Below the pieces are notes generated by a model that saw only the letters and a program-made list of their open reading frames with translations, had not been told where the DNA came from and made no database searches. The translations under genes and the position numbers were made by a program. From a virus (lineage: Duplodnaviria > Caudoviricetes): a stretch of 30,473 nt of DNA. This document shows positions 10,166-28,613 of this stretch, in pieces (within the stretch, counting starts at the first letter, position 1; each line of letters opens with the position of its first letter). Where the stretch lies: positions 1-30,473 of IMG/VR virus record IMGVR_UViG_3300010236_000009; one strand, given 5' to 3'.

Positions 10166-11254
10166 TTACCAGTTGGTAATCTTTCTAAAAGCACGAGTTA
10201 AAGCAGTAACGCCATCAACTCTTTCAGTAACCTTAATCGCTACCTGATCTTTCTCGAAAGTGCCCGCTCCTTCGGTGGTTGTTTTAACTGACATTTGCCG
10301 TCTATCACCAATGTAATAGAACCGCAAATCACCAAAATAAACGGTGTTTCCACAATCGTTTTGCTCTAAAACTGGCCTACCCATCAATCGAGGCAAGCCG
10401 CCATCTCTAGGATCAACCAACAGATATCGACCGTCGCTGTCTTTGAGTTTGCTAATATTTAACAAAGTCAAATTTGAAGCCAGCCAAACTCCGTTTTCCC
10501 GATGAGATTGAGGAAGTCTCCAATAAGCATTGATAATATCGTCAGCATCACCGGTTCCACCGGCACTCTCTGAGCTTATGCTTGCTTGGCTTAGACCAGT
10601 CGGTTCGCCAGAACCAGAACCAGTAACAAACTTATGGTCTTCTTCCCGATAAATAGCTTGAGCAAATCGATCAGTTAAATAAGGCACCAAGTCAATGGCT
10701 GAATCCTCAAATAACTCGGTAGAAAGATAAATAATGGCATTCAGTTTTTTGGCGGTAAGTTGAACATTGCCAAAATCAGCCGAAGTGGTAGAAATTGAAG
10801 TGTTTTCTGACCCCCAATAAACTGCTACATCTGCCGCTAAAGCGGGCAATTCCAACAGCTTACCAGCCATCGGCCAAACAGTCGCAAACCTTCTGATTAC
10901 CGGTTTATCTTGGGCCCAATCAACAATATCTGCCCTAAATTCATCAGGCACCAAATAACCGCCAGAAGCGTCAACGCCTTCAGCTAATGCCTTGGCGTGA
11001 GCCTTGTCGCCATCTAAGACCGCTTTGAAGAATGCTTTAATTTTCTCTTCTTTATCGAGTTCTTCAGGATCACCACTTTTAGGTTTTTCCTTTTTGGCTT
11101 CGTTAGCCGCTGAAATCACAGCTTTAGCAGTTTTTTCCACTAATTTTTCCATTAGTTCGTTGAGTTGGCTTTCCTCTTTTTCCTGCTCTTTAGCCTTCGC
11201 CTCTTTTTCCTTTTCAATTAACTTTAATGCTTCTTTTAGTTCTTGAATATCCAT
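10166..11254 (-). CDS. Major capsid protein, HK97 family
   Basis: Coiled-coil delta domain, GGYLVPDEF, LSTELFEDS, LKDSDGRYL, LMGRPV, FGDLRFY and FEKDQVAIKVTERVDG motifs. Confidence 0.97.
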   Translation of the reverse strand: MDIQELKEALKLIEKEKEAKAKEQEKEESQLNELMEKLVEKTAKAVISAANEAKKEKPKSGDPEELDKEEKIKAFFKAVLDGDKAHAKALAEGVDASGGYLVPDEFRADIVDWAQDKPVIRRFATVWPMAGKLLELPALAADVAVYWGSENTSISTTSADFGNVQLTAKKLNAIIYLSTELFEDSAIDLVPYLTDRFAQAIYREEDHKFVTGSGSGEPTGLSQASISSESAGGTGDADDIINAYWRLPQSHRENGVWLASNLTLLNISKLKDSDGRYLLVDPRDGGLPRLMGRPVLEQNDCGNTVYFGDLRFYYIGDRRQMSVKTTTEGAGTFEKDQVAIKVTERVDGVTALTRAFRKITNW

Positions 11255-12307: not shown

Positions 12308-14494
12308 TTATAGCTTTATAACTGGTAAAATGGTGCATCGGCAATTCGGATGTAACGGCGGAACCGCTAAATCTCCATAGTCTATTTTCATTCTCCCGCC
12401 ATCAACCCCGACTAACTCATCGCCTTTATTTAAAAAGTTTTCATCTAGGGTTCTAGTTTTATATTCTTTCTCCATTGCCAAACAATATTGACAAGTTCTT
12501 TCATCTAAAGCCACCAGCCATTCTTTATGAGAAACAATTCCCGACTGTTTATATCCCAATAAATTTCCCAAATTGCTTGCTCTAATAGTTTCTGTCCTCG
12601 CAATCGATTCTGAGCGAGTTGTTTTGGCTTCCGCAAAAACATCCTGAACCCTTTTAGTAATTTTAGGCACACTTTCGTTATTACTAATACCAGCGATTAA
12701 TTGCTCTTTCAATTTCTCATAAGTAGTTAAATTAACGTTTCCCGCCAACTTTAATTCAAATTCATTAATAGTTTCTATTGCTCTATCGGTAAAGGTTATT
12801 TCCTCATCAAGGTCTAATAATTCCAAAGCACTTTTTCCTGATTGGGCTATTAAACGATAAACTAAATTATTAATCACTTCTATTAAAATATTATTTTCTT
12901 CTTCCATATCAAATAAATAATTGTCAACAATTTTAATTCGTTTAGGCATTTTAATTTCATTAACTTTTTTTAAAACTAATTTTTCTTGTCTTCCAAAATA
13001 GTCATTCAAAATATTAACCATTTTCTTTTCACTCGCTTCGCTCCGATTAACCATTTCTTTCCAAAAAGCTTCAGCTTTGTTTTTAGGAATTTTTACCTCT
13101 TCTTTTCCGGCTTCTTTAACTATCCTATCTTTCATCGTTAAATAAACAATTTTTTTCAAAATATCAGATGTGCCATTTTTTAACATTTCTTCTCTAATTC
13201 GATTTTTAACAATATCTAGCGGGGTTCTTTTATGATTAACAATAATTCTTTTTTTCCTTTCAATTTTATTACCTTTAATTTTCCCTAATTGGGGCGAAAC
13301 ACTAAAAGGCATATAAATAACATCTCCTTCATCAACCGGATCATATCCTAATAAGTCCCTTCTTTCATTAATTGTCAAAACGTCTCCCCCATCTTTAACC
13401 ACTTTTAGTTTTTCCTCTTTATTCTCTGGAACAGGGTCAACAAAACCAAAATATAAGTTTTCCTCCCAATCAGTAATATAAAATTCATTTAAAAATCCAA
13501 CCAGTTTAGTCATTCTTGGCCGAATAACATTCTCCATCCACATTTCTTTTTGGGTAATCGCATTTGCCCGGTTAACATCATCAGAAATTGCCGCTATAGT
13601 TTTGGGAACCTGAAAAATAGAATAAATTTCATCTCGGCTAAATTCTCTTAATTTCAAAAACTCCATATCCTTTAAGGTTTGTTTCAGAGCCGTATCAATC
13701 TCCAGCCCGCCAGTTAATATTGCTAGCTGATGAGCGTTTTTTACTCCTCCAAATTTAGTTCTCCACTCCGATTTAATTCTTTTAATTTCTTTTTCTTTTA
13801 ATTTCTGTTCCGTCTTCAAGATAACCGAAGGGGTGGCATTATTATAAAAGAAGTTTCTGTTCCACTTTAAAGCAAAAAGGTCTGTATCATAAGTATAAGC
13901 GATTGCCTGTAACGGCCCCATTCCTCGATAGGGGTTAGTTGGATTGAAACTTTTTAAATGAACAATGTCTTCTACTTTGTATTCATCGCCCTTTCTCATC
14001 CCCGGCACCCGATATTCATATCCTCCAATGAAATCGCCATCTTTTTTGGGAGGAAGAATCTTTACCCAATCAGGTCTTAATATCCATAATTCTCTAGGCT
14101 TACCCCCAACTCGATACTTATAAAAAAATGCTTCTCCCACCAGTTGCTGATAAGCTTCTAGTCCATAAAAGAAATCGTATCGACTCTGGAAATCATTAAC
14201 CCTATCTAAAACATCTAGGGCAGGGTGTTCTTCCACCTCTTCGATTTTCTTTCCCCTTTTCCGATATAAAACCAACTCAATATTGGCGACTTCTTTAGCG
14301 ATTGAATCAACAGCCCGATAAACCCAGCCCCTCATTGCTTCCAAATAATCTTTATCTTTCATATTCGGAGGCTCAGGAAGACTCATCATATCCATTCTTG
14401 TTGACATTGGCGGAGCACCAACTGAAGCCTTACTCTCTTTCGGAGAATTGAACAAACTAATTAATCTTTCCGGCAATTCATTAATAAATCCCAT
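12308..14494 (-). CDS. Portal protein (HK97 family) fused to a MuF / SPP1 gp7-like minor head domain
   Basis: Portal motifs WVYRAVDSIA, LWILRPDWV, YRGMGPL, FFYNNATPS and LTINERR. MuF motifs RSESIARTET, KEWLVALDERTC and PPLHPNCRC. Confidence 0.93.
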   Translation of the reverse strand: MGFINELPERLISLFNSPKESKASVGAPPMSTRMDMMSLPEPPNMKDKDYLEAMRGWVYRAVDSIAKEVANIELVLYRKRGKKIEEVEEHPALDVLDRVNDFQSRYDFFYGLEAYQQLVGEAFFYKYRVGGKPRELWILRPDWVKILPPKKDGDFIGGYEYRVPGMRKGDEYKVEDIVHLKSFNPTNPYRGMGPLQAIAYTYDTDLFALKWNRNFFYNNATPSVILKTEQKLKEKEIKRIKSEWRTKFGGVKNAHQLAILTGGLEIDTALKQTLKDMEFLKLREFSRDEIYSIFQVPKTIAAISDDVNRANAITQKEMWMENVIRPRMTKLVGFLNEFYITDWEENLYFGFVDPVPENKEEKLKVVKDGGDVLTINERRDLLGYDPVDEGDVIYMPFSVSPQLGKIKGNKIERKKRIIVNHKRTPLDIVKNRIREEMLKNGTSDILKKIVYLTMKDRIVKEAGKEEVKIPKNKAEAFWKEMVNRSEASEKKMVNILNDYFGRQEKLVLKKVNEIKMPKRIKIVDNYLFDMEEENNILIEVINNLVYRLIAQSGKSALELLDLDEEITFTDRAIETINEFELKLAGNVNLTTYEKLKEQLIAGISNNESVPKITKRVQDVFAEAKTTRSESIARTETIRASNLGNLLGYKQSGIVSHKEWLVALDERTCQYCLAMEKEYKTRTLDENFLNKGDELVGVDGGRMKIDYGDLAVPPLHPNCRCTILPVIKL

Positions 14495-14498
14495 ATCT

Positions 14499-15869
14499 TT
14501 AGTATATACTAATTTTTGGCTCAGTTAAATATTCCATTGCTAGGGCAATACTCCAGAAAGCATCACCGTGTCCTTCTGGCGTTTCAATTGCCTTCAAATC
14601 ATTTTGAACCGCCAAAATAGATCGTCTTTGCCGATCATCGGCAATTAATTTAATTTTACCATTAGTCCGCTTCTTATCAAATTCTGTTGCCAAAGCATTT
14701 TTCTTTTTTAATCCCAAATTAACGCCAATATATTCCGGCCCCAATTCCCCTTTTTCGGCAACAACCTCAATCTCTCCTCTAGTATTATCATAATACAACC
14801 GGTCAATTTCAAAGTTTTCAATTGCCAAATCCAAGTATTCTAATTGGTCTTTATAATCTTCCCCGTCAAAAAAGTGCTGATGGATTTGAGTCCATTCCTC
14901 CTTATCTCCCCGGACTTCAAAAACGCTAAAATGAGCCGGATGCCTATGTTTACCTAAATCCCAACCCCCAATAATGTCATATTCTTTAGGGTTTTCTCTT
15001 TTAATACCAATGGGATAATTAGGGATATCAAACATCATTGATAAAACCTGTTCTTCGCTAAAAAACGAGTTCTCAGAATAAACAGGCGAACACATATATT
15101 CCTGATTAAATATTTTCTCTCCTCGCTCATTTTTTCTTTCAATTAATTCCTGATAATTATAATGTTCGGGCCATAATGAGATTTTCTTTTTATAATCAAC
15201 AATCGCTGGTAAAATCCTTACTTCAAACCTTTTTAAAAACTTTTTATCAAAAAAGAAATCATCATTAGTCTGAGGTGTCCCAACCACGTGTAAAAAAGCA
15301 TCTTGATTAGGAATATCAATAATCTGGGTTTTCATTACATAATTAACCGTTCTAACAATTTTTGGCTCTAATTTGTTAGCCGGATCTTGAAACGGGTCAT
15401 CAACAAATACCCCCCAATTACAATGTAATCCTCTCTTAAAACCTAATAAACCTTGCGGCGATAAAGTAAAGGTAGCCGTTCTTCCCTGCCAACGATATTT
15501 AATCACGCCTTCCGCCGTAGTTTTTAAATCAATCAAATCTTGAAAATAAGGATTCAACTTAACCAAATCCTTAATCTTGCCAATATGATAGGCCGACATT
15601 TCCCCTTTATAAGAGAAATAATGAGCTTCCATATCAAACTTAGTATCTGCCCTTCTCAACATATCCCACATGAAATAAGCATAAAGAGAAGTCGATTTAA
15701 AGTGGTCTTTAGCAGAAACCCTAACTGTTCTTAAATGATTCTGAAGAAAATTAGCGGTCTTAGTAACAAATTCACCATCGACAAACTTTTCGAAGCTTAA
15801 ACAAAAAATATTGTTAACAAAATAATCAAAGCTCTGAATCGACTTTATTATCTTTTTCGGATCTAACAT
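14499..15869 (-). CDS. terL: Terminase large subunit
   Basis: Walker A-like SAKDHFKST, Walker B VFVDDP, VVGTP, FNQEYMC; nuclease motifs GWDLG and HGDAFWSIALA. Directly upstream of the portal gene. Confidence 0.9.
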   Translation of the reverse strand: MLDPKKIIKSIQSFDYFVNNIFCLSFEKFVDGEFVTKTANFLQNHLRTVRVSAKDHFKSTSLYAYFMWDMLRRADTKFDMEAHYFSYKGEMSAYHIGKIKDLVKLNPYFQDLIDLKTTAEGVIKYRWQGRTATFTLSPQGLLGFKRGLHCNWGVFVDDPFQDPANKLEPKIVRTVNYVMKTQIIDIPNQDAFLHVVGTPQTNDDFFFDKKFLKRFEVRILPAIVDYKKKISLWPEHYNYQELIERKNERGEKIFNQEYMCSPVYSENSFFSEEQVLSMMFDIPNYPIGIKRENPKEYDIIGGWDLGKHRHPAHFSVFEVRGDKEEWTQIHQHFFDGEDYKDQLEYLDLAIENFEIDRLYYDNTRGEIEVVAEKGELGPEYIGVNLGLKKKNALATEFDKKRTNGKIKLIADDRQRRSILAVQNDLKAIETPEGHGDAFWSIALAMEYLTEPKISIY

Positions 15870-16206
15870 TTTCTTTCACTAATTTAGTTAATTCGGGGAT
15901 TAAGCTAAAGGCTTCACCGCCAACATCAAGATTTTGCTGAGGCTTTCCCTCAATTCTATCAAATATTTCCTTAATTGCTTTTATGTCTCCTTTGCTAGCT
16001 AATACCGCCAAAGTTATTGCGATTTCTTCCATTCTACTTTTACCAGTTTTACTTCTCGGATCAACTTCTTTTAGAAACTCAAGTAAGGCGTCAGTTAATG
16101 GTTTTCTAACTGGTCTGCCACTAGGATTACCGGAATGTCCCGGGACAAACCTTCCCTTTTCATCCCTGATAACTTCCTGTTCACTGGCTGATTGTTCACG
16201 ATCCAT
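15826..16206 (-). CDS. terS: Terminase small subunit
   Basis: KGRFVPGHSGNPSGRP and GDIKAIKEIFDRIEGKPQQ motifs; overlaps the terL start. Confidence 0.8.
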   Translation of the reverse strand: MDREQSASEQEVIRDEKGRFVPGHSGNPSGRPVRKPLTDALLEFLKEVDPRSKTGKSRMEEIAITLAVLASKGDIKAIKEIFDRIEGKPQQNLDVGGEAFSLIPELTKLVKENVRSEKDNKVDSEL

Positions 16207-16212
16207 AATTAG

Positions 16213-16221
16213 ATTATATCA
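16213..16221 (-). promoter_or_regulatory. Putative extended -10 leaderless promoter for terS
   Basis: Perfect TGnTATAAT 6 nt before ATG 16206; no Shine-Dalgarno site; weak -35. Confidence 0.5.
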
Positions 16222-17416
16222 TTGGCGTTATCTCTTGCCATAACTCCTCCTTACCGATAAACTTGGCGTATCGCTTTCTAATAACATCACAGTATTTTGG
16301 GTCTAGTTCCATCATATAGCAAACTCTTTTAAGTTGCTCGCAAGCGATTAGAGTAGAACCTGAGCCACCGAATAGATCCAATACTAATTCTCCTTTTTTG
16401 CTAGAATTGCCAACAGCATGAGAAATTAATTCTATTGGTTTCTGGGTAGGATGTAATTCATTTTTTAATGGTTTGTCATAATTCCAAACAGTTGTTTCCC
16501 CCGCACTACCATAGAACTTGTGTCTTGCCCCACTTTTCCAACCATACAACAAAGGCTCGTGTTTGTAATGGTAATCACTCCTGCCCAAAACATGATTATT
16601 TTTTACCCAAATTATTGTTTGTTTAAGTTCCCAATCAGCCTCTAAAAGAGATATCATCATCATCATCATCATCAACTCTCCACCCTGGGGACTACAACAA
16701 TAATAACTACCCCCTGCCTTTGTAAATACGTTCATATTTTGAAAAGCACTAACCCATAATCCCTTCATCTCTTTAACCGTCAGCGTATCATTATCTATAT
16801 TTTCTTGAATACGGTTACCTTTATCAATAGCGTTTAGAAAACTGTTCTTGTCCCCATAGCTTACCCCATAAGGTGGGTCAGTAAACACCATGTCCGCCTT
16901 CTGCCCACCCATTAACCTCTCTACATCCTCCTTTTTAGTAGCGTCCCCACACATCAGTCGATGTCTCCCCAACTGATATATCTCGCCTAACTTGCTAACC
17001 GGTTCGCCCCCTTCAACCGCTGGCGGATCGTCCTCTTCCACTTCTCCTGTGTCCCATTTAGCGGGGTCTATCCCCCAATCTCCTAAGGGTAAATCTCCCC
17101 ATTCATTAGCTAATAAATCATAGTCCCATTCTCCATCAGCCAAATTATCGTTAATAATAAAATTTCTTTTTTGTTCTTCCGTCCAGTCTTTAGCACAAAC
17201 AAAATAACTATCTTTTATTTCAAAACCCTCTTGAGCCAACTCTCTTAACACTCTTAGCCGCATATTGCCGCCCAAAACAATAAAATTCTCATCATAAACA
17301 ATGGGGCGTTTTTCTAACATTTGAGGAAATTCCCGAATCTTTTTCTTTAATCTCTCGAAGGCCTCTTTTTTTATCATTCGAGGATTATTTGGGTTTAGTT
17401 TTAATTTATTTAACAT
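16214..17416 (-). CDS. ParB-like N-terminal domain fused to an N6-adenine/N4-cytosine DNA methyltransferase (beta class)
   Basis: NPNNPR...GGNMRL ParB-like domain; DPPY, HPTQKP and VLDLFGGSGST motifs. Usual position upstream of terminase. Confidence 0.92.
   Translation of the reverse strand: MLNKLKLNPNNPRMIKKEAFERLKKKIREFPQMLEKRPIVYDENFIVLGGNMRLRVLRELAQEGFEIKDSYFVCAKDWTEEQKRNFIINDNLADGEWDYDLLANEWGDLPLGDWGIDPAKWDTGEVEEDDPPAVEGGEPVSKLGEIYQLGRHRLMCGDATKKEDVERLMGGQKADMVFTDPPYGVSYGDKNSFLNAIDKGNRIQENIDNDTLTVKEMKGLWVSAFQNMNVFTKAGGSYYCCSPQGGELMMMMMMISLLEADWELKQTIIWVKNNHVLGRSDYHYKHEPLLYGWKSGARHKFYGSAGETTVWNYDKPLKNELHPTQKPIELISHAVGNSSKKGELVLDLFGGSGSTLIACEQLKRVCYMMELDPKYCDVIRKRYAKFIGKEELWQEITPMI
16655..16672 (-). 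repeat. (ATG)6 trinucleotide repeat encoding Met6
   Basis: Six CAT units on the + strand; protein reads GELMMMMMMISL. Confidence 0.9.
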
Positions 17417-17589
17417 AACCTCTCCCCTCCCCTATTCTTTTTCTCTTGGGAAAAATTTTTACCCACAAAACACCTCTCCCCTACTCTATTTTTCCCGCCC
17501 AAAATAAACCCGAAATCTAAATGTTTTTTACCGAATAAAAGCCGCATTTTCTGACAGATTTTGCTTAGTGTATTATATAGAAACATATA

Positions 17590-17964
17590 TTATGATAGGG
17601 TCTCTTTTATCTTATTCTGATAATATTTTATCTTATCTTGATACCACTTCTCTTTAAATTTAGCGATTTTATTCTTATTTTTTTCTAAATAAGCCCACCG
17701 ATCGGGAAATTTATTTTTAAACCACTCTGCCGCTTCTAGGGGATTTTTATGCCACCTATTAATATGGCAATGAAAACATAACACCATCAAATTATTCTCG
17801 TCCCACCTCAAATAATTACCCCTTGATTTAGGAATAACATGAGATAAATGGCCATTTTGCTTTTCAACCGACCTGCCGCACCATTGGCAAATATTCTTAT
17901 CTCTTAAAAAGATATATTCCCTAGAAATCTTAGTCAGTTTTTTTTGTAAACTTTTTATCGACAT
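17590..17964 (-). CDS. NinG/Rap-like HNH nuclease
   Basis: YIFLRD...CQWC...SHVIPKSRGNYLRWDENN...CFHCH. Confidence 0.85.
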   Translation of the reverse strand: MSIKSLQKKLTKISREYIFLRDKNICQWCGRSVEKQNGHLSHVIPKSRGNYLRWDENNLMVLCFHCHINRWHKNPLEAAEWFKNKFPDRWAYLEKNKNKIAKFKEKWYQDKIKYYQNKIKETLS

Positions 17965-18811
17965 TTGGCAACAACATTACTTCATCATTATATTGTTTTC
18001 TTAATTCAGCGTTCCTTCTTAACAAAAAAGACATTAATTTAGCTTTTCCATTTTTCAGGCCGCCAAAATAATAAACTAAATTATTAATATCTTTAGGCAA
18101 ACATTTACCAGAAAACCCTCGGTTATTTCTAAATACCCAAGTGTGAGAAGGCGATACTCTTGGGTCAGCGAGCCAAACTTGTCTTAATTCGTTCCAGTCA
18201 ACACCGATACTTTCCGCCAAAGAAAAAAATTCATTACAAAACATTACCTTAGTTGCGATCCAAGAATTTTCCATTAATTTACATAATTCTGCCGTTTCCG
18301 CGGGGACCTGATAAATCTTTGTATAAGAATTAGTAACCAAAGTCCATAACTCAGCAAAATCACCAGTTACCGACTTATCGCCACCAAGAATAATAAAAGT
18401 TTCTTTTCTAGCATCTGTTAATGGATGGCCAACCGTTTCTCCCAAATATTCTGGGCTAAAGCAAAATCGATTGCCGTATTTTTTATTTAAATAATTAGTC
18501 GTGCCGATCTCAACCGTTGATTTAAGACAAAATTGTCCTACCCAATCAATCCAATTTTTAACTGCTCCCCTAACAATCGAGATATCGCAACGGCCATTTT
18601 TTAACATTGGCGTTGGCACACAAACAAATCCAAAATCATAATTATGATAACCATTAACAACTGAATTATCTTCAACTCTTCTAACCACGCCATCTTCATT
18701 AACATAGTGAGCCTTTTTAAAATATTCCCCAATAAATTGGCCAACCCAACCATAGCCAATAATTAAAACTTTGGGAACCTTATTGATAATATCTCTATGC
18801 GGTTTTAACAT
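17930..18811 (-). CDS. UDP-glucose/GDP-mannose 6-dehydrogenase family protein lacking the C-terminal domain
   Basis: GYGWVG, CVPTP, KSTV, FSPEYL, AELCKLMENSWIATKVMFCNE and catalytic GFSGKCLPKD motifs. Confidence 0.9.
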   Translation of the reverse strand: MLKPHRDIINKVPKVLIIGYGWVGQFIGEYFKKAHYVNEDGVVRRVEDNSVVNGYHNYDFGFVCVPTPMLKNGRCDISIVRGAVKNWIDWVGQFCLKSTVEIGTTNYLNKKYGNRFCFSPEYLGETVGHPLTDARKETFIILGGDKSVTGDFAELWTLVTNSYTKIYQVPAETAELCKLMENSWIATKVMFCNEFFSLAESIGVDWNELRQVWLADPRVSPSHTWVFRNNRGFSGKCLPKDINNLVYYFGGLKNGKAKLMSFLLRRNAELRKQYNDEVMLLPNVDKKFTKKTD

Positions 18812-19619
18812 AAAAATCTTGCCACTCTTTTACTGATATTTTAACATCCCACTTTTCTTTTACTTCTTTTAATCTTTTTATCCGCTCTTTTTCCCTTTCT
18901 TCACCATTCAAAAATCGATCCAGCTCCGATCCATTAGTAGCAACCGGCATCCCTAGGGCCCAAGACTGAATTATTTTATTATTACTTTTAAACCGAAAAC
19001 GATAATTATTAGAAGGAGCCTTAGGTAATAAAACAATGTCATGTTTAATAATTTCTTCATTAACAGTTTCCTGATCATATTTAACAAATTCATCATTAGC
19101 ATAAAAAGGTTGATCGCTAATTACTGTTAAGCTTAATCCTCTTCTTTTTAAACTTTCAACCGCTGGTTCTAAAACCACATTGGCATTTCCAGAATAACCA
19201 AAATAAACACAACTTTTTGCCAAACCTTGATGTTTGTTTTTAATGGGTCTAGACCACTCTAGATCCACCCGATCGGGAATACAAATAACCGGAACATTGC
19301 CAATATCAAATTTTTTAATTTGGTCTGCTAGTGCTTGAGTAGAAGTAACCACGCCGTTACAATTTCTAATCATTTCTACCACTGGTCGATTATCTAACCA
19401 ATCAGGGTCGCAAATATCGAAAAACTTTTTCCCCTTGAAATTTTTGACCATTTCCTCCCAATATGCTTTTTGGAAAATTAAGCCATCATATTCTCTCCCC
19501 GTCGAATACATTTCACATTGTTCCCAATATTTGGCAATCCATTCCCCTCTAATACGAGAAGAGCCAACTGACCCCTTCCGGCGATGATCATAATATTCCA
19601 TGGTAACCAAACCAATCAT
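18795..19619 (-). CDS. GT-B fold glycosyltransferase
   Basis: SSRIRG, FDICDPDW, IPDRVDL, YFGYSGN and DIVLLP...KSNNK...WALGMPV motifs. Start moved to ATG 19619 (AGGAGG site, ATGA overlap). Confidence 0.75.
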   Translation of the reverse strand: MIGLVTMEYYDHRRKGSVGSSRIRGEWIAKYWEQCEMYSTGREYDGLIFQKAYWEEMVKNFKGKKFFDICDPDWLDNRPVVEMIRNCNGVVTSTQALADQIKKFDIGNVPVICIPDRVDLEWSRPIKNKHQGLAKSCVYFGYSGNANVVLEPAVESLKRRGLSLTVISDQPFYANDEFVKYDQETVNEEIIKHDIVLLPKAPSNNYRFRFKSNNKIIQSWALGMPVATNGSELDRFLNGEEREKERIKRLKEVKEKWDVKISVKEWQDFYVKTA

Positions 19620-20584
19620 TTCAAAACCTCCTTTATTACTTCTAGCCATTGTTTTTCAAAATTTTTCCGGCTAAATTCTTTTTTAGCAAATTTTCTGCCC
19701 CGTTCGCCAACTTCTTTTGCTTCCTGGCAACGATTAGTGATTAAATCAGAAACTAAAGTCGCCACCGCCAATGGATCTTCATCAACCAAAAAGCCATTAA
19801 CCCCATCTTCAATAAAAGACTCAGCGTCTTGGTGTTTATTAGTAACGACACAACAACCAGACAACATTGCTTCTGTCCTCGATCTCGGCCGAGGTGATTG
19901 GTGAGTCAAATTTAAATATACCAAGCTTCTCGACAACCAGTCTCGATATTCTTTCCAAGATCCGAATTTAACATCGATACCAATCCAAAAAAATTTAAAT
20001 CCCCATTCGTTTAAAAGACTAATCGTATTTCTCAAAATTTCTCGACGATAGGCCTTTTCCATTCCAGCCGGAGAAACATAAGTAGTAATTCTCGGCTCTT
20101 TCTCATTAGAATACCATTCCTCAGGGTTCATCCCATGAATAACCGTCTTCCCCCAACCCCACATTTTCTGGGCCTCAAAAGAGTTACAAATCATAAAGTT
20201 ATCGCCAACCAAATCTTTAACTCGTGAAATAACTTCCCTTTCTGGCAATCGGTCATCAAGGGGGACCATGTGATTAATAACAATTTTAGGGATATCTGTA
20301 ATTAAGCTATTAACTTCCCGGTATAATTCTCCCTTACCAATATCATTGGTAACACACTGTTGATCTAGGTGTAAAATAGCAAAATCATACTTGTTTTTTT
20401 CATAATGGGTAACCCAATTAACGTTTTTTGGTAATGGCCGCGATTTAGTTCCCCAAGTCCTATAAGGATTAATTAGCAAATCATATTGACCAATAAAAGA
20501 CATGTTGGCTATTTCGAATTGGTGCCCAACATGCCATGGCACACCGATTACCTTAAATTTTCTGTGAGTCTGTTCAGTTGACAT
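19616..20584 (-). CDS. GT4-like glycosyltransferase
   Basis: VYLNLTHQSPRPRSRTEAMLSGCCVVT...IEDGVNGFLV...GRKFAKKEFS. Confidence 0.85.
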   Translation of the reverse strand: MSTEQTHRKFKVIGVPWHVGHQFEIANMSFIGQYDLLINPYRTWGTKSRPLPKNVNWVTHYEKNKYDFAILHLDQQCVTNDIGKGELYREVNSLITDIPKIVINHMVPLDDRLPEREVISRVKDLVGDNFMICNSFEAQKMWGWGKTVIHGMNPEEWYSNEKEPRITTYVSPAGMEKAYRREILRNTISLLNEWGFKFFWIGIDVKFGSWKEYRDWLSRSLVYLNLTHQSPRPRSRTEAMLSGCCVVTNKHQDAESFIEDGVNGFLVDEDPLAVATLVSDLITNRCQEAKEVGERGRKFAKKEFSRKNFEKQWLEVIKEVLK

Positions 20585-20867
20585 TTTTTAAATTTTCTTT
20601 ATATTTTTTAATCGCTTCTTGCTTAGCCTTCTCTTCTTTTTTTTCAGCCTTTTTTTCCGCTTTTCTAACCGCCTTTTTAACATCATCTAAACTAGAAACA
20701 ATTTTGCTCCAATGATCAACTGCCTCATTAAAACTAAACTGTAAAGACAAAATAAAATTAAATACCCGACCGCAATCTAAACAGTAATACCACATCGGGG
20801 CAATCTTTTTCAAATTTTCGTGCGGGCATTCATCAGTTAAATATCTTATTTCTTTTGGTTTATTCAT
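20574..20867 (-). CDS. Small zinc-finger-like protein with a basic helical tail
   Basis: CPH...CLDC motif. Start moved to ATG 20867 (GGAGG site, ATGA overlap). Confidence 0.6.
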   Translation of the reverse strand: MNKPKEIRYLTDECPHENLKKIAPMWYYCLDCGRVFNFILSLQFSFNEAVDHWSKIVSSLDDVKKAVRKAEKKAEKKEEKAKQEAIKKYKENLKNVN

Positions 20868-22450
20868 TCTCCACCTCCTAATTTCCACAACAATAACTTT
20901 GCTTTATAAATTTCATCTTTCTTGGTGAACCTGCTTTTAGAATCTAGCAAAACCCGGCATTTGGCCTTCGGAACATATTGGTAATTAACCCCTGCCATTC
21001 TCATCTTAGAAATTAAATCCCTTGTCATCCCCCCATAATAAATCATTCTTTCATTAAACATTCCCATATTAACTAAATCTTTTTTATAAATACAGCTAAA
21101 ATTTTCCACAAACGATTTTTTATTAGCCCCCTTGTCGCCAAATAACCATAATCTCGGCCTTAATTTATCAACAAATTCATTAATGGCGTCTCTGTCCATC
21201 ATAAATCGATCGTCTTGGAAAACCAAAATATTACCAAATGCCTCAACAATACCATTATTCCTGGCCCTCGCCAAGCCATAGCCATCTTTGCTTTGTTTTA
21301 CATATTTAATGGGAACTTTTGCGAGCCTCTTAAACTCCATCACCACTTTTTCCGTTTCATCATTACTCCCATCATCAACCACAATTATTTCTATATTGGG
21401 ATATCTCTGGGCGGCGATCCCCAAAAGAGTAGTTTGTAATATCTTTGCTCGATTATAAGTGGGCACAATCACCGAAACCAAAGGCTTATTCATTCCCAAG
21501 ACATCACGATAAATCCGATAATATCTAATCGCATAATAACTATTGTCTCGATCAATAATTGATTTAAAAGCTTCTTCCCGCATTTTTTCCCTTAATTTTC
21601 GGTTTTCTTTTAGTTCTTTTATCTTATTAACAAGATCCTCTATGTCTTCTTTATTCCCATCTCGAACCACCATATTTTTCCCGTTTTCAATATCAGGAAC
21701 CAGCCCAACTCGCCTAGTTAAAACGGGCACCCCACAAGCCATCGCCTCAAGGTGAGGAAGAGAACCGCTTTCAAAATTATCGGTAGAATTATTAATAAAC
21801 AAATGGGCCTCATAATAAGAATTTCTCAACTCTTCATCAGAAATATCCTGTCTAAAATCTAAATAATCACCAGCCTCACTAACAATTTCTCGGAAATAAT
21901 TCATATCAGATATTCTTCCCACCAGAATAAATCTTGTTTTTGTTTCCCGGCAAGCCCTGGCAACCTCTAAAATACCCTTATTGCTCTCGATTCTTGCCGC
22001 GACCATAATAATTTTAAAAACATTTTCTTTTGGATACTCTCTTTGAAACTTAAAGAAACCAAGATCGGTTGTATAGGGAATTAAAATTGGCGTTTTTGAA
22101 AACGCCCTAATCATATCTTTTTGCTGGGTTTTATTTCTAACAATAACCCGATCATATTTTTTAAACCAATCTTTATCACAGACATTATATGGATTATGAT
22201 GAGCTAATATTTTTGGCTTGCTGGCCAAAAATGGAAATTTTTCCATTAGCATTTCCGCCGTCTTAAAATATTCAAAATCAATTAAGTCAGCCTCATTAGC
22301 CTTTTTTTCAAATTCCGATAAATTATTTGGCCTTTTGGGGTGAACAGCAATAGTCTCTATTTCGCACCGATCCTTTAAAATTTCTTTTGGTTTCGCACCA
22401 CAAATCCAAATTGCCGAAGGAATTTTGTCAACAACAATTAAAATTTTCAT
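20864..22450 (-). CDS. Bifunctional GT4 + GT2 glycosyltransferase
   Basis: GT4: NKG...ESGSLPHLEAMACGVPV. GT2: VSVIVPTYNR, VVDDGSND, ARARNNGI, FQDD. Start placed at ATG 22450 (ATGA overlap). Confidence 0.92.
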   Translation of the reverse strand: MKILIVVDKIPSAIWICGAKPKEILKDRCEIETIAVHPKRPNNLSEFEKKANEADLIDFEYFKTAEMLMEKFPFLASKPKILAHHNPYNVCDKDWFKKYDRVIVRNKTQQKDMIRAFSKTPILIPYTTDLGFFKFQREYPKENVFKIIMVAARIESNKGILEVARACRETKTRFILVGRISDMNYFREIVSEAGDYLDFRQDISDEELRNSYYEAHLFINNSTDNFESGSLPHLEAMACGVPVLTRRVGLVPDIENGKNMVVRDGNKEDIEDLVNKIKELKENRKLREKMREEAFKSIIDRDNSYYAIRYYRIYRDVLGMNKPLVSVIVPTYNRAKILQTTLLGIAAQRYPNIEIIVVDDGSNDETEKVVMEFKRLAKVPIKYVKQSKDGYGLARARNNGIVEAFGNILVFQDDRFMMDRDAINEFVDKLRPRLWLFGDKGANKKSFVENFSCIYKKDLVNMGMFNERMIYYGGMTRDLISKMRMAGVNYQYVPKAKCRVLLDSKSRFTKKDEIYKAKLLLWKLGGGE

Positions 22451-22860
22451 ATTTTCGGTTTCATCCAAACATGAATATCATTTCTGCTATTAGTTACCAT
22501 TTTCTTTATTTCCCATCTTCTTATATTATAAATTTTATCAATATTGTCTCTTTCAAGAAATTCAAAAGTTCTCTCGGTATAAAACGTCTTATGGGTAAGA
22601 ACCCAAGCGTTTTCCCCTTTTAAATGAGGAACAACAATATAAAGTTCTTGACACTTATCCCAACAATCGTTTAAAAAATTAATTGCCTCTTCTTGGCTAA
22701 GGTGTTCCAAGAAATGACTAGTTCTTATTTGTTCCCACTTTCCTTCCGGCAAACCATTGCGGACATCTAAAACATACTTCTGGCCAAAATCCTTAATATC
22801 TAGGCCAACAAAACCATCAGCAACTTTTTCGCCACAACCAACATCCAGTTTCATTTCCAT
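22447..22860 (-). CDS. Small class I SAM-dependent methyltransferase
   Basis: KLDVGCG...FVGLDI...SHFLEHL...IVVPH. Confidence 0.8.
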   Translation of the reverse strand: MEMKLDVGCGEKVADGFVGLDIKDFGQKYVLDVRNGLPEGKWEQIRTSHFLEHLSQEEAINFLNDCWDKCQELYIVVPHLKGENAWVLTHKTFYTERTFEFLERDNIDKIYNIRRWEIKKMVTNSRNDIHVWMKPKI

Positions 22861-23435
22861 GCTTCAACAAATAAACCTATTAACGCCTGATCTTTAGACT
22901 GGCCAGATTTTAATCTAATTTTCGACATTCTTAATCCCTCTTCGCGATAAAATCTCATTAGCTCTAACACTCCAATAGTGGCTAGTCTTTTTCTGACTAT
23001 TACCTTTTTAAATCCCACCACTGGTAATACTTTTTCAAACCATTCTGGCGTATATCTTAAATAATCCCATTTATCATGTAGTGGGTTGATAAAGGGAACA
23101 GAAATATAACAAATTTCTCTTGTAACATCATAAAGATTCTTGACTGCTTGAATTGGGTTATATATATGCTCTAGTGTTTCTAAACAAAAAACTACATCAT
23201 AACGCTTAACATATTTGCCGGGCATATCAGCAAAGGCAAGGGGGACATTTAAATCTGCTACAACATCTGTCCCAAACTGCCCATCTATATCTAGAGTAAC
23301 ATACTCTTTGGGCTTACCATTCACAAAGTTTTTAGCCCAATACTTTTCTGGCCCACAGCCCACATCCAAAACAGTTTTCCCCCCGATATCGATTTTGGAT
23401 AAATAATTAACTATTTGCTCTCTGCTTTTGCTCAT
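22851..23435 (-). CDS. Class I SAM-dependent methyltransferase
   Basis: VLDVGCG, YDVVFCLETLEH and ISVPFINPLH...DYLRYT motifs, a type common in polysaccharide loci. Confidence 0.85.
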   Translation of the reverse strand: MSKSREQIVNYLSKIDIGGKTVLDVGCGPEKYWAKNFVNGKPKEYVTLDIDGQFGTDVVADLNVPLAFADMPGKYVKRYDVVFCLETLEHIYNPIQAVKNLYDVTREICYISVPFINPLHDKWDYLRYTPEWFEKVLPVVGFKKVIVRKRLATIGVLELMRFYREEGLRMSKIRLKSGQSKDQALIGLFVEAWK

Positions 23436-24307
23436 AAAGATTTAAAAAAATCATAATATTTATTGGCCATATTCTCTAGCCCAAAATCATATCCCTTTTG
23501 ATAGTTAGTCATTATTTCCCCAGTAGAGCCAAAATCACAAGCATAATTAATAAACATTCCGCAATGTAAGGCCTCTATAAGAACATTAGGACAAGGATCG
23601 GCAAAACTAGGAAACCAAAACTCATCACAAGACCTCATTACCTTCGCCACTAATTCTGGTTTTTTTAATATTCCAAGATACTGCCAATCTTTGCCGATCT
23701 TATAATCATATAAACCGAACTCATTTTGTAGCAAATAAGTAGGATATTTACCGGCAAAAATAATTTTTAATTCTTTGTCAAGTAGTTTTTCATAACGATA
23801 ACGGGCGATTACTTCCTCTATTCGTTTATTTTCATCTTTACGACTATTTATATTTAAAACGGTTTTTCCTTTACCAAAATTAAATTTATCGCCATTAGGT
23901 TTAAAAATATCCTTATCAACTCCGTTCATAATTACACACCAGTTATTCCCCCCCCCAGTAATTGTGCGAAGCCAATCATAAGTAGTATTTTTCACGAATT
24001 CACTTTGGCAAATTATCCCATCGCTATTTTTAAAAAAATACTTAAACCTCTCCCACGTTTTCCCGTTATTCCTCCAAACCTCAGGAATTCCATCTAATCT
24101 TAAAACAACTTTCGTTTTTTTCTTTAACTTATCAAAAGTTTCAGGAAGTATCATTGTCGCTCCGGCAATTAAAGAAATATCCGCTTCATCTAAGCTATCA
24201 ACTACCTGAAAATATTTCGAAGATCCTTTTATAAGATTTTCTCTAAATCTCCAGCCACCGCCAATTTCCATTTTAGAGTCGTTAGGCAAATAAACTTTAC
24301 TTTTCAT
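23432..24307 (-). CDS. GT4-like glycosyltransferase
   Basis: GGG near the N-terminus, VLRLDG, IICQSEF, IMNGVD and FPSFADPCPNVLIEALHCG motifs. Confidence 0.85.
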   Translation of the reverse strand: MKSKVYLPNDSKMEIGGGWRFRENLIKGSSKYFQVVDSLDEADISLIAGATMILPETFDKLKKKTKVVLRLDGIPEVWRNNGKTWERFKYFFKNSDGIICQSEFVKNTTYDWLRTITGGGNNWCVIMNGVDKDIFKPNGDKFNFGKGKTVLNINSRKDENKRIEEVIARYRYEKLLDKELKIIFAGKYPTYLLQNEFGLYDYKIGKDWQYLGILKKPELVAKVMRSCDEFWFPSFADPCPNVLIEALHCGMFINYACDFGSTGEIMTNYQKGYDFGLENMANKYYDFFKSL

Positions 24308-24863
24308 ATTTTCTTTTTACAATCGCATAACCATTAGCATCAGTAAACACATTGGTAATAACATCTTTTTCTTTGAAAAAATCATAATAGGCCCGAGGTA
24401 TTCCATATCTTCCTTCCCAATTTGCTTTATGAAAAAAATCATCTAAAATAATTATTGGAATATTCAGCTCCCAAACTGCCCCCAAATCTCTTAATACCCC
24501 CTCATATTGATGATTGCCATCAACATAAACCATGCCAAAATTATCTTTCCACTTTTCAATATTATTGTTAATAGTCTCGACGCTATCGCCTATAATCCTT
24601 GTTACTCTATTTTTTACCCCAATTATTTTTACTCTTTCTTCAAAACCTTCTAAGTCCTTTATCTTATCTATTGTTACTGTTTCCTCAACATCAGTATCAA
24701 ACAAAAAAGCACTACTTCCAATACCAAATCCAGAACCAATTTCTAATACTTTTTTTGGTTTATATTTTCTTGTTACCAAAGATAAAAACTTAAACGCTTC
24801 TATTCCTTTCTCATTTAATGTTTTATAAAATTCTTCAAGCCTTTGTTTTTGGTCGCTTCTCAT
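24297..24863 (-). CDS. Class I SAM-dependent O-methyltransferase (Methyltransf_24-like)
   Basis: VLEIGSGFG, VYVDGNHQYEGVLRDL and IILDD motifs. Confidence 0.85.
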   Translation of the reverse strand: MRSDQKQRLEEFYKTLNEKGIEAFKFLSLVTRKYKPKKVLEIGSGFGIGSSAFLFDTDVEETVTIDKIKDLEGFEERVKIIGVKNRVTRIIGDSVETINNNIEKWKDNFGMVYVDGNHQYEGVLRDLGAVWELNIPIIILDDFFHKANWEGRYGIPRAYYDFFKEKDVITNVFTDANGYAIVKRKYEK

Positions 24864-25135
24864 TTCTTTTTTAACAACTTATAAATACTAATTAACAATA
24901 AAATCACCAATAATATATTTCTAGCCACCAAAATAGAAACAGCCATTGGCTCTAATTGGATTAAACTATCCCAATATCTAAAATAAAACCAGGTCAAAAA
25001 ACTACAACTAATAAATAAACCGGCCTCTAAATGAGAAAGAAAAGCCACAAATGGGGCCACCCAAACTAAATACTGTGGACTAAAGGTATTGCTAAAGAGA
25101 ATTGCCGCTAATAATAAAATAAAACTCAGTCTCAT
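24860..25135 (-). CDS. C-terminal part of a GT87-like (GT-C) membrane glycosyltransferase
   Basis: Hydrophobic; FSPQYLVWVAP motif; has its own GGAGG ribosome-binding site. Confidence 0.7.
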   Translation of the reverse strand: MRLSFILLLAAILFSNTFSPQYLVWVAPFVAFLSHLEAGLFISCSFLTWFYFRYWDSLIQLEPMAVSILVARNILLVILLLISIYKLLKKK

Positions 25136-25190
25136 CTTATTGACCTCCCCTTCCCAACATTATTTATTCTTCCCATTAACCCATACATAG

Positions 25191-25838
25191 TCAATCACTC
25201 CTTATTTCAAAAGTATTATGTTTAAATTCGACAATCGAATTTCTATTTAATAGTTTAGGAATTGCTCTAACACTTTCAATTTGTATTCCCCTATCCCCGT
25301 GAAAATCAAAAATGCAATTAACCCAATTAGGAAAAAATAAAAATGAATAACCAATAAACACCAACGAAATAAAAGCTCCCCACAAAATAGAAAAAAATTC
25401 CTTTCTTTTTAATAAAGACCCCAAAACAACTGGTAACAAAATAACTGGATATAATTTAGTTAATATTCCTAAAGTTAAAACCGGTAAAGACCAAAAGCTT
25501 TTTTTAATTGCCAAATAAACCCCCAATAAACTAAATAGGGCGGGGAAAATATCAAATCTATCCCAAAGCAAACCCCCCAACGGCAAGATACAAGCTAAAA
25601 ATATATAAGGATTTCCTTTTAATTTTTTAATAATAAGACAAGAGATTAAAATAGCCAAAATAACCATTCCATACCACATTAAAGTGAAATATCGTTCCCC
25701 AAAAATGTTCGCCAATTTAAACAATATAAACGCAAACGGAGGATATTCTAATTGAAAATCTAAATAGGGTTTCCCAATGTTTTGAGCATAACCCCGATAT
25801 AGGGCTAACTCTCCCCATGGGACAGATATTTCAGTCAT
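25191..25838 (-). CDS. N-terminal part of a GT87-like (GT-C) membrane glycosyltransferase
   Basis: Multi-pass membrane protein; PYLDFQLEYPP, RFDIFPAL, TKLYPVILLP and HGDRGIQIES motifs. Confidence 0.8.
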   Translation of the reverse strand: MTEISVPWGELALYRGYAQNIGKPYLDFQLEYPPFAFILFKLANIFGERYFTLMWYGMVILAILISCLIIKKLKGNPYIFLACILPLGGLLWDRFDIFPALFSLLGVYLAIKKSFWSLPVLTLGILTKLYPVILLPVVLGSLLKRKEFFSILWGAFISLVFIGYSFLFFPNWVNCIFDFHGDRGIQIESVRAIPKLLNRNSIVEFKHNTFEIRSD

Positions 25839-26038
25839 TTGGTTCGAAATTCTATCTTTAATTTTCTTAAAATTTGATAAAGTTGAGGTTTTGATATTCC
25901 GTTCCTTTTGGCAATTTCTTTAACAGAATATAGCCAGCTATCATTCTCATCTTTCATAAAATACTCCTGTAATATCCGCAAATTACGAGAAGAGTTTTCG
26001 TCTATATCTAGTTGATTTCGGCTTTTTATTTTAACCAT
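25835..26038 (-). CDS. Helix-turn-helix DNA-binding protein
   Basis: SVKEIAKRNGISKPQLYQILRK; first gene of the glycan operon. Confidence 0.75.
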   Translation of the reverse strand: MVKIKSRNQLDIDENSSRNLRILQEYFMKDENDSWLYSVKEIAKRNGISKPQLYQILRKLKIEFRTK

Positions 26039-26048
26039 TATTAACCAT

Positions 26049-26077
26049 ATAATACCATTTATTATTTTATTTGTCTA
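26049..26077 (-). promoter_or_regulatory. Sigma70-type promoter of the glycan operon
   Basis: TAGACA (26072-26077), N17, then TATTAT (26049-26054) with an extended TG; 10 nt before ATG 26038. Confidence 0.65.
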
Positions 26078-27472: not shown

Positions 27473-27576
27473 CTAAGAACCGCTACCCCATCACTAAATA
27501 TTATCCCCTCAGCAACGATTCCTGTTCCGCTTACTTGGCTAACATCCTCGATTCTTTTTAGCCAAAACTTTTTCAT
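27448..27576 (-). pseudogene. Apparently truncated conserved phage protein (42 aa)
   Basis: Not in the ORF track. MKKFWLKRIEDVSQVSGTGIVAEGIIFSDGVAVLRWLTAFEL; ATGA-coupled to the methyltransferase stop. Confidence 0.55.
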
Positions 27577-28613
27577 ATTTTATCTATACTTAAATATAAC
27601 CTTTCTCCTATCCAAGTAACTACATTTGTCGTTACTGCATTGCCCAAACATTTATATCGCTGAGTGTCGCTTATTCCCTCCGTCCAACCGTCGGGAAACC
27701 CCTGCAGGCGTTCGCATTCGGTCGGCGTTAAGCGTCTGATTGCTCCATTGAGTTTATAGCTGTCCCAATTCTGTTTGCTTCCATAAGGGCTTTTTCTTCC
27801 TCCACTTCTAACCGTTTTTGAAACTTGGTATAAGCCTGTCTTGCCCCCCAATCCTCCAGCATTTCCAGCTATTGTGGAAGCAATTCCGCTTGCGTCATAA
27901 ACCCGTTGCCCCTGCGGAAAATTCCTGCTTAACTCTTTCTCATCTTCTTCGAGCCACTTTTTGTTCTTTTCCGACATAATTGCTCCCCGATACTTCAGCT
28001 TTTTATAAGTCTCTCCGTTTGTTCCTTCGACAGGAAATACTTTTGGTCTGGGTGTTCCTCTAAGATGTCCGACAATGAACACTCTTTCCCTATTCTGGGG
28101 GACTCCGAAATTTTTGCTGTTAAGAACCTGCCATTGATACTCATACCCCAAGTTGGTGAGAACCCCAAGTATTGTCTGGAAAGTTTTTCCTTTGTCATGA
28201 CTAAGTAAACCCCTGACATTTTCGAGTAGAAAATATCGGGGTCTTTTGTCGGCAAGAATCCTAGCGATTTCAAAAAATAGAGTTCCTCTGGTGTCCTCAA
28301 ATCCTCTCCTTTTACCTGCGATTGAAAATGCTTGGCAAGGGAATCCGCCACAGAGTAAATCGTGGTCTGGGATTTCTGATGAGGGAACCTTAGTAATATC
28401 TCTTGTGTCGATTTCCCCATAGTGTTTTTTGTAGATTTGGCTGGCGTATTTGTCCCATTCATTGGACCAGACGCAATAAAATGCATGTTGGCCGTGTTGT
28501 GATGTTCCGCTCTTATTGTTGGGGCTATCTTTGGGTTTAATTGCCACCTTTTGTAACCCATATCTAAATCCTCCTATGCCTGCAAATAAGTCTATAAACC
28601 TTATTGTTTCCAT
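27573..28613 (-). CDS. DNA cytosine-C5 methyltransferase
   Basis: Motif I FAGIGG, IV GFPCQAFS, VI ENV, VIII QNRERVF, IX RRLTPTECERLQGFP, X LGNAV. Confidence 0.97.
   Translation of the reverse strand: METIRFIDLFAGIGGFRYGLQKVAIKPKDSPNNKSGTSQHGQHAFYCVWSNEWDKYASQIYKKHYGEIDTRDITKVPSSEIPDHDLLCGGFPCQAFSIAGKRRGFEDTRGTLFFEIARILADKRPRYFLLENVRGLLSHDKGKTFQTILGVLTNLGYEYQWQVLNSKNFGVPQNRERVFIVGHLRGTPRPKVFPVEGTNGETYKKLKYRGAIMSEKNKKWLEEDEKELSRNFPQGQRVYDASGIASTIAGNAGGLGGKTGLYQVSKTVRSGGRKSPYGSKQNWDSYKLNGAIRRLTPTECERLQGFPDGWTEGISDTQRYKCLGNAVTTNVVTWIGERLYLSIDKI
27995..28561 (-). CDS. Nested +1-frame ORF; probable second (beta-like) subunit of the C5 methyltransferase
   Basis: 188 stop-free codons; AGGAGG (28570-28575) 8 nt before the ATG; ends in CSLSDILEEHPDQKYFLS. 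Confidence 0.65.
   Translation of the reverse strand: MGYKRWQLNPKIAPTIRAEHHNTANMHFIASGPMNGTNTPAKSTKNTMGKSTQEILLRFPHQKSQTTIYSVADSLAKHFQSQVKGEDLRTPEELYFLKSLGFLPTKDPDIFYSKMSGVYLVMTKEKLSRQYLGFSPTWGMSINGRFLTAKISESPRIGKECSLSDILEEHPDQKYFLSKEQTERLIKS

Follow-up and report, generated by a model that had tools for sequence, protein, structure and literature searches.

We analysed a stretch of 30,473 nucleotides from a tailed virus (Caudoviricetes; IMG/VR record IMGVR_UViG_3300010236_000009), hereafter the window, which spans the entire virus record (30.5 kb; there is no larger genome from which it was cut), and we focused on a block of glycosyltransferase (GT) and methyltransferase genes at 17930-26038 on the minus strand. 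The window holds the late region of an HK97-type siphovirus, with terminase, portal-MuF, protease, capsid, neck and tail genes, and nearly all of its genes are on the minus strand. An earlier note on this DNA had described an approximately 8-kb glycan synthesis and methylation block next to the packaging genes, and all of the open reading frames (ORFs) listed for it were present. In the direction of transcription, the block starts with a small HTH protein (25835..26038; weak Pfam HTH match) shared with the close relatives L001 and L199. Behind it lie the two halves of a split GT-C transferase of the GT87 type, namely the N-half (25191..25838; Pfam GT87, E 1e-8) and the C-half (24860..25135), a 91-aa ORF with its own ribosome-binding site that matches the GT87 C-terminus from the SPQY helix onward (E 1e-12). 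They are followed by a Methyltransf_24 methyltransferase (MT24; 24297..24863), the GT-B glycosyltransferase GT4c (23432..24307; Pfam GT4-type match), the S-adenosylmethionine (SAM) methyltransferase MT23 (22851..23435; Pfam Methyltransf_23), a short SAM methyltransferase of 137 aa (22447..22860; PHROG match, E 3e-7), the bifunctional GT4-GT2 (20864..22468; Pfam GT4+GT2, no predicted transmembrane (TM) segment), a small Cys/His-containing protein (20574..20888), the GT-B glycosyltransferases GTb (19616..20584; Pfam GT4-type match) and GTa (18795..19649), and a nucleotide-sugar dehydrogenase (17930..18811). The split GT-C, the three SAM methyltransferases, the three stand-alone GT-B proteins and the GT4-GT2 fusion had thus been named correctly. 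The supposed zinc-finger protein had no family match and was found in only 5 loci including the window. Most of the block genes could be classified with Pfam or PHROG; GTa matched nothing in Pfam, PHROG or NCBIfam and was placed by its predicted fold.

Neighbouring genes overlap at 10 of the 11 junctions in the block, in agreement with the near-universal start/stop overlap reported before, and part of these overlaps depends on the choice of the longest ORF start; the remaining junction is a 55-nt gap. The block had been taken to end at 17930. The junctions, however, remain between -44 and +7 nt past this point through HNH, a 58-aa ORF, a ParB-N6/N4 methylase, terS, terL and portal-MuF (12308..17964, minus strand, contiguous with the GT block). 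As no break occurs at 17930, the block reads as the front of a packaging and head operon. GC content is flat over the GT block. Upstream of the HTH gene, a sigma70-like promoter candidate (TAGACA-17-TG-TATTAT; 26049..26077, minus strand) matches the consensus at 10 of 12 positions. Promoter-like sites are barely more frequent in the window than expected by chance (51 found, 42.4 expected), so the promoter proposed earlier is supported by conservation: the site is kept in L199, and TTGACA is found at the same place in L001.

To place the block among other phages, loci were collected with a GTa alignment, using the best 80 of 144 viral loci and 17 loci in species genomes; removal of four Bacteroidales loci and of duplicates gave 84 core loci, including 27 with at least 9 kb upstream (long loci). 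GTa had 538 relatives, mostly on phage-sized contigs, and a locus search with GTb as a single sequence returned no loci. Within the 27 long loci, GTb and GT4-GT2 were universal, and MT23 (26), GT4c (22) and the short methyltransferase (18) were frequent. Other genes were more variable, including the dehydrogenase (17), a deacetylase (15), an epimerase (9) and MT24 (7), and GT87 was absent from the long loci and from all 84 core loci. The block therefore consists of two modules, a soluble core (GT4c, MT23, GT4-GT2, GTb and GTa) and a separate split GT-C, and the single pathway proposed by the earlier note is not supported, the GT-C pair and MT24 being accessories. The proposed search for the same gene set in other phages was productive, with the order GT4c, MT23, GT4-GT2, GTb, GTa, portal held in 74 of 75 loci. 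The portal gene was downstream of the core in 74 of 84 loci, with no terL between GTa and portal in 31 of those, and the block was located between terL and portal in 4 loci. Some MuF proteins (L074:3075-4208, L077, L015 and L017) are fused to an ADP-ribosyltransferase-like domain (Pfam ART-PolyVal). Cultured phages had no match for GTa or GTb; GT4-GT2 gave GT2-domain matches only, and GT4c matched one faecal phage. We found no paper describing this gene module in a literature search that covered neither subscription papers nor supplements.

Tree comparisons indicated that the core is inherited with the head genes. Tree-distance correlations with the portal were 0.58 for GTa, 0.62 for GTb and 0.53 for GT4-GT2, so that these three match the portal tree to about the same degree as the capsid (0.65) and the protease (0.56). 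The dehydrogenase tracks the portal tree only at the level of the null maximum. When loci with at least 8 kb upstream were selected by portal instead, GTa and GTb were both present in 27 of 30, a proportion that is not unbiased, given that the portal profile was built from core-bearing phages and the contigs are partly shared with the GTa-selected set. The three loci without GTa and GTb lie on a separate clade or a long branch of the portal tree.

The split GT-C is distributed differently. Its halves cover model positions 57-237 and 308-404 of full-length GT87 relatives, and the pair is without the first TM helix and without the helix after the second outer loop of these relatives. The eight best matches among 821 relatives are all short, six of them having 214-230 aa and the same ends, and the C-half follows the N-half in 20 of the 23 loci inspected. 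After the window's own record and duplicates were dropped, 13 distinct loci besides the window carried the two-gene GT-C; in 12 of these the halves overlap at ATGA, and in the other a 120-aa ORF separates them. In the window, an 18-codon ORF lies in the spacer (55 nt, 25136-25190), its stop overlapping the start of the C-half, together with GGAGG; the close relative L199 has a plain ATGA overlap. A pseudogene was ruled out by the same two-gene form in other distinct loci, and a simple frameshift joining the halves was ruled out by about 48 missing model positions and the 120-aa ORF between the halves in L214/L215. The contexts vary, including other portal types, tail-like genes and a position immediately before GT4c, and in L204-L212 and L217 the split GT-C lies between tail-like and injection-like genes of a different phage type. 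Present in 13 other loci and absent from the 84 core loci, the two-gene GT87 is a mobile membrane accessory. Loss of one helix would invert the remaining topology unless the gene were split, which may explain the two-gene form, the split restoring the membrane topology. GT-C enzymes act outside the membrane, and this one would use a host lipid-linked sugar; it is therefore best read as a host-surface moron, a role that we consider probable.

The GTs of the core look active, as invariant polar residues are kept in all four GT families. The models of GTa (pLDDT 95.9) and GTb (pLDDT 95.2) were of high predicted quality, and that of GTa has a two-Rossmann GT-B fold whose matches include BshA (Z 21.1, rmsd 3.0, 261 aligned), PimA (Z 20.2), Gtf3 (Z 19.1) and T4 AGT (Z 18.2). 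The dehydrogenase is more problematic. Its N-terminal and central domains (Pfam UDPG_MGDP_dh) agree with the UDP-sugar dehydrogenase named earlier, and among the 22 copies listed (window 17930-18811 and 21 relatives, 260-326 aa) the nucleotide-binding (GxGxxG) and GxC motifs are mostly kept and the Lys that we take to be catalytic is present, the role of GxC being assumed likewise. The C-terminal UDP-binding domain (PF03720), on the other hand, was found in 0 of 17 records (control 14 of 14), and as relatives lack it too, the activity of the enzyme is uncertain. Hence, of the acidic, methylated oligosaccharide envisaged in the earlier note, the methylation is still likely, and the acidic sugar is optional and depends on a truncated enzyme. 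Taken in isolation, this short dehydrogenase and the split GT87 look broken, as they would if the block were a host locus in decay or wrongly assembled. Relatives keep both forms, though; the GT families have a median identity of 36-43% to the window copies across a family with 144 viral loci, unlike a near-identical host copy; and GTa was found in 2 of 401 genomes of a Patescibacteria-phylum sample, in both cases in prophages. We give decay hardly any credence.

As for the acceptor, one of two clues to a protein is in the HK97-type major capsid protein (10166..11254, minus strand), which has the Ser/Thr run S155-T156-T157-S158. Capsids of core-bearing phages read K/S-S/T-T-T/S-A-x-F here, whereas solved capsids and core-less relatives read like ESxPxF at the same position, in a stretch that we take, from the HK97 fold, to be the outward E-loop. 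In a first count, Ser/Thr occupied at least three of the four positions in all 50 core-bearing capsids, in 3 of 32 that apparently had no core and in 16 of 56 of undetermined status. Two of the three core-less exceptions (L107 and L163) have less than 4 kb upstream of the portal. The record of the third, L311, seems to start at terL beside host-like genes (labels by reading), and with such genes immediately before terL the prophage may have been truncated at this point. A revised count, in which these three were dropped and L248 and L239 (a 100%-complete core-less relative without GTa and without the run) were added, gave 1 of 31 core-less capsids with the run. It is the sole such Ser/Thr tract among 327 windows. 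No conserved Ser/Thr tract was found in five tail and neck families (tube, adaptor, terminator, stopper and neck), nor was a C-terminal Ser/Thr extension found in the capsid; whole-protein Ser+Thr content was uninformative. Separately, the capsid gene of L038, L041, L053, L078 and L167 appears to be in several pieces with HNH-like ORFs between them, suggesting self-splicing introns. Our best explanation is that the soluble core serves O-glycosylation of the major capsid protein, with the conserved Ser/Thr run as the likely site, to which we assign a probability of roughly 0.6.

The only clearly chromosomal GTb-GTa pairs also point to a peptide acceptor. These are in peptide-export loci of Bacteroidales, where a sample of 401 genomes gave 2 strong and 6 weak partial matches. 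The pair is accompanied by a peptidase-ABC transporter and/or HlyD in L089, L087 and L094 (L090 is too short for context), and L087 also carries LanC-like genes beside the transporter and HlyD. In G002, the pair occurs with a LanM above the cut-off, a peptidase-ABC transporter, HlyD and a 66-aa precursor of the double-glycine type, whose 36-aa core contains 9 Ser/Thr and 6 Cys. We regard the G002 cluster as a candidate glycosylated lanthipeptide pathway. In their wider make-up, G002:C24, L233:9360-12524 and L089 present a class II lanthipeptide cluster in which a precursor rich in Ser, Thr and Cys is joined by two LanC-like genes, an epimerase and several GTs, GTb-GTa among them. The Bacteroidales GTa proteins are 30-38% identical to the window GTa, and the GTb copies group with phage copies with 100% local support, nested in phage GTb diversity. 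Recruitment of GTb-GTa into peptide clusters thus fits a peptide acceptor.

Several observations weigh against capsid glycosylation. The run was present in three core-less rows of the first count; L311 has it with no GTa in its 37.8-kb record, and L248 has 3 Ser/Thr without GTa. The tree allows that as few as one or two common origins lie behind both the run and the GT block, and because both traits probably arose once or twice, the contrast of 50 with 1 is suggestive rather than statistical proof. The run could also be structural. GT4c (0.36) and MT23 (0.31) track the portal weakly, at the null maximum. The fold similarity of GTa (Z 18-21) does not tell its acceptor, and in the Bacteroidales clusters, whose product is putative, GTb-GTa may only extend sugars. 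Finally, DNA-modifying GT loci are also found near terminase and ParB genes, according to the accessible part of one preprint (bioRxiv 10.1101/2023.12.21.572611).

The last point bears on the possibility that the acceptor is phage DNA, glycosylated and methylated by the core while it is being packaged, the base being supplied by an enzyme that escaped recognition. The core adjoins the ParB-methylase and terminase, the window also has a C5 methylase, T4 AGT is among the GTa fold matches, and some relatives have TAGT or QueC/FolE beside ParB. Specifically, the ParB-N6/N4 DNA methylase fusion (16214-17416) precedes terS and the C5 cytosine methylase (27573-28613) is upstream, neither being conserved with the core; QueC, FolE and ParB-like genes (7-deazaguanine-type DNA modification) are inserted between GTa and terL in L013, L016 and L021, and ParB and TAGT-like GTs in L018-L020. 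Against this, the TAGT and Que genes come and go independently of the core, the recruitment into peptide clusters fits a peptide instead, and the expected partners were not found. In the text available of the same preprint, DNA-glycosylating GTs are classed by partners such as 5mYOX or ThyS. No ThyA-like hydroxymethylase was found among 35 records (control 10 of 14), which are mostly incomplete by CheckV, 12 having terminal repeats; a Tet_JBP search, weak for want of a positive control, gave 0 of 35. In ten near-complete relatives, a Pfam scan of 121 unassigned ORFs (one per cluster; 8 of 122 picked ORFs omitted and 7 added) detected no TET/2-oxoglutarate, ThyA or DNA polymerase gene. Modification of DNA is thus very unlikely. 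Of the three targets that the earlier note had offered, the evidence favours a virion protein for the core and the host surface for the GT-C.

Host range is relevant to another alternative. Two relatives are prophages integrated beside chromosomal genes in the ultra-small Patescibacteria, one in G001 (Magasanikbacteria by record), with ATP synthase and serS nearby, and one in G803, with a tyrosine recombinase, typA and murC as neighbours; they account for both GTa matches in the 401-genome sample of that phylum. Other short GTa contigs are in bins of Saccharibacteria, Peribacteria and unrelated phyla, the last possibly misbinned. Directly behind the capsid gene of the G803 prophage (L231:9154-10365) are sulfotransferase-, kinase- and nucleotidyltransferase-like genes (labels partly by reading). 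Lifestyle as a prophage would suit a core that makes a host glycan, either in lysogens or in cells under infection, with a host protein, pilin or lipid-linked precursor as acceptor and by way of host export, changing attachment or blocking superinfection. The GT2 domain of GT4-GT2 matches a GtrB-like PHROG, the window genome adds a GT-C, and a groundwater study, in its accessible part, reads sugar genes of Patescibacteria phages as O-antigen or surface-adhesion auxiliary metabolic genes (AMGs; PMC12911398). The conserved block, however, is without flippase, polymerase and GT-C: a crude hydropathy scan of 329 block ORFs found none with at least three predicted TM helices, and no Wzx/Wzy or ABC export genes. 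The block is also contiguous with the packaging genes, and packaging genes are normally not expressed in lysogens. Moreover, its inheritance together with the portal is not what one expects of a moron that can be swapped. We therefore consider a host glycan unlikely. The block content and the partners not found support what had been proposed in general terms, a phage pathway of several steps to a glycan, explained neither by a capsule locus nor by known DNA glucosylation.

The capsid run could also be incidental, with the core glycosylating another part of the virion (portal-MuF, tail fibre or decoration protein) or GT4-GT2 making a longer repeating polymer that covers the particle. For the latter, chondroitin synthase heads the PDB sequence matches of GT4-GT2, heparosan synthase is also among them, and the dehydrogenase and epimerase could supply uronic acids. 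These PDB matches, however, span the generic GT2 domain only, and the five tail and neck families have no conserved Ser/Thr tract, which makes such a target decidedly unlikely.

If the capsid is the acceptor, the block genes would be co-expressed late with the head genes, and late in infection the core would assemble, in the cytoplasm, a short glycan carrying methyl groups. GTb and/or GTa might put the first sugars on the protein, GT4-GT2 and GT4c might extend the chain, and the methyltransferases might add decoration or a cap. The sugar set would differ between phages through variable accessories (dehydrogenase, epimerase, deacetylase, DegT aminotransferase and sulfotransferase), and the resulting coat could shield or retarget the particle. 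A bolder proposal, which we put forward only tentatively, is that a widespread clade of Patescibacteria phages has a dedicated Ser/Thr loop glycosylated on each capsid subunit by a five-domain GT-B/GT-A line of its own, with swapped tailoring genes that vary the coat, that GTb-GTa is a new family of protein O-glycosyltransferases borrowed by Bacteroidales for lanthipeptides, and that the minimal GT-C made of two genes works as a mobile enzyme of host conversion. In the literature examined, phage virion glycosylation has so far been demonstrated for some mycobacteriophages only. Glycosylation of the capsid here would widen this to a large uncultured clade that uses unrelated enzymes, and sugar genes of Patescibacteria phages that are now filed as host-helping AMGs would be re-read as virion genes. 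The explanation names a four-residue site and an enzyme set, which allows a test in E. coli that needs neither phage nor host in culture. In either case, new enzyme types are represented by the two-gene GT-C and by GTa, which has 538 relatives and no family model.

Known systems resemble the block in part. GtrABC and GT87/PIG-M-like enzymes share with it a phage-borne GT-C of the GT87 type, but the window's block has no GtrA flippase, no membrane-anchored GtrB and no other TM protein, and its GT-C is in two genes without two TM helices of the full-length relatives. TET/ThyS-linked DNA glycosylation, as far as the preprint cited above could be accessed, also has GT-B and GT-A enzymes in the neighbourhood of methylases, ParB and terminase, whereas the defining 5mYOX or ThyS partner was not found here (the Tet_JBP search having no positive control). 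Bacteroidales RiPP clusters (ribosomally synthesized, post-translationally modified peptides) with LanC-like proteins and GTs contain true GTb and GTa homologues, but are chromosomal peptide-export loci with putative products, in the portion of the source available (PMC10352776). Glycosylation clusters of Megavirinae, compared by description and from a partial text (PMC10117803), similarly combine clustered GTs and nucleotide-sugar enzymes with clade-specific sugar sets and a virion surface target, but belong to giant eukaryotic viruses with fibrils rather than to tailed phages of 35-60 kb.

The closest parallel is virion glycosylation in mycobacteriophages, attributed to Corndog gp35-38 and Che8 gp108-110 (PMC11600133, PMC11256854; both accessible in part), where GT genes of this kind modify capsid and tail tube according to the portion seen of the former. 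Both systems have phage-encoded soluble GTs and a methyltransferase linked to virion genes in an HK97-type siphovirus, and in Corndog a methyltransferase and three GTs lie between the terminase and capsid genes, so that the GT genes are likewise placed among head genes. GTa, GTb and GT4c, by contrast, have no homology to Che8 gp108-110 or Corndog gp36-38, the only matches being weak ones of the GT2 domain to gp108 (E 1.5e-4) and of MT24 to gp35 (E 5e-6). The window further differs in its five GT domains, four of them GT-B, in its variable nucleotide-sugar enzymes and in the proposed site, an internal capsid loop. By analogy, the core would work like mycobacteriophage virion glycosylation, with unrelated GT-B enzymes.

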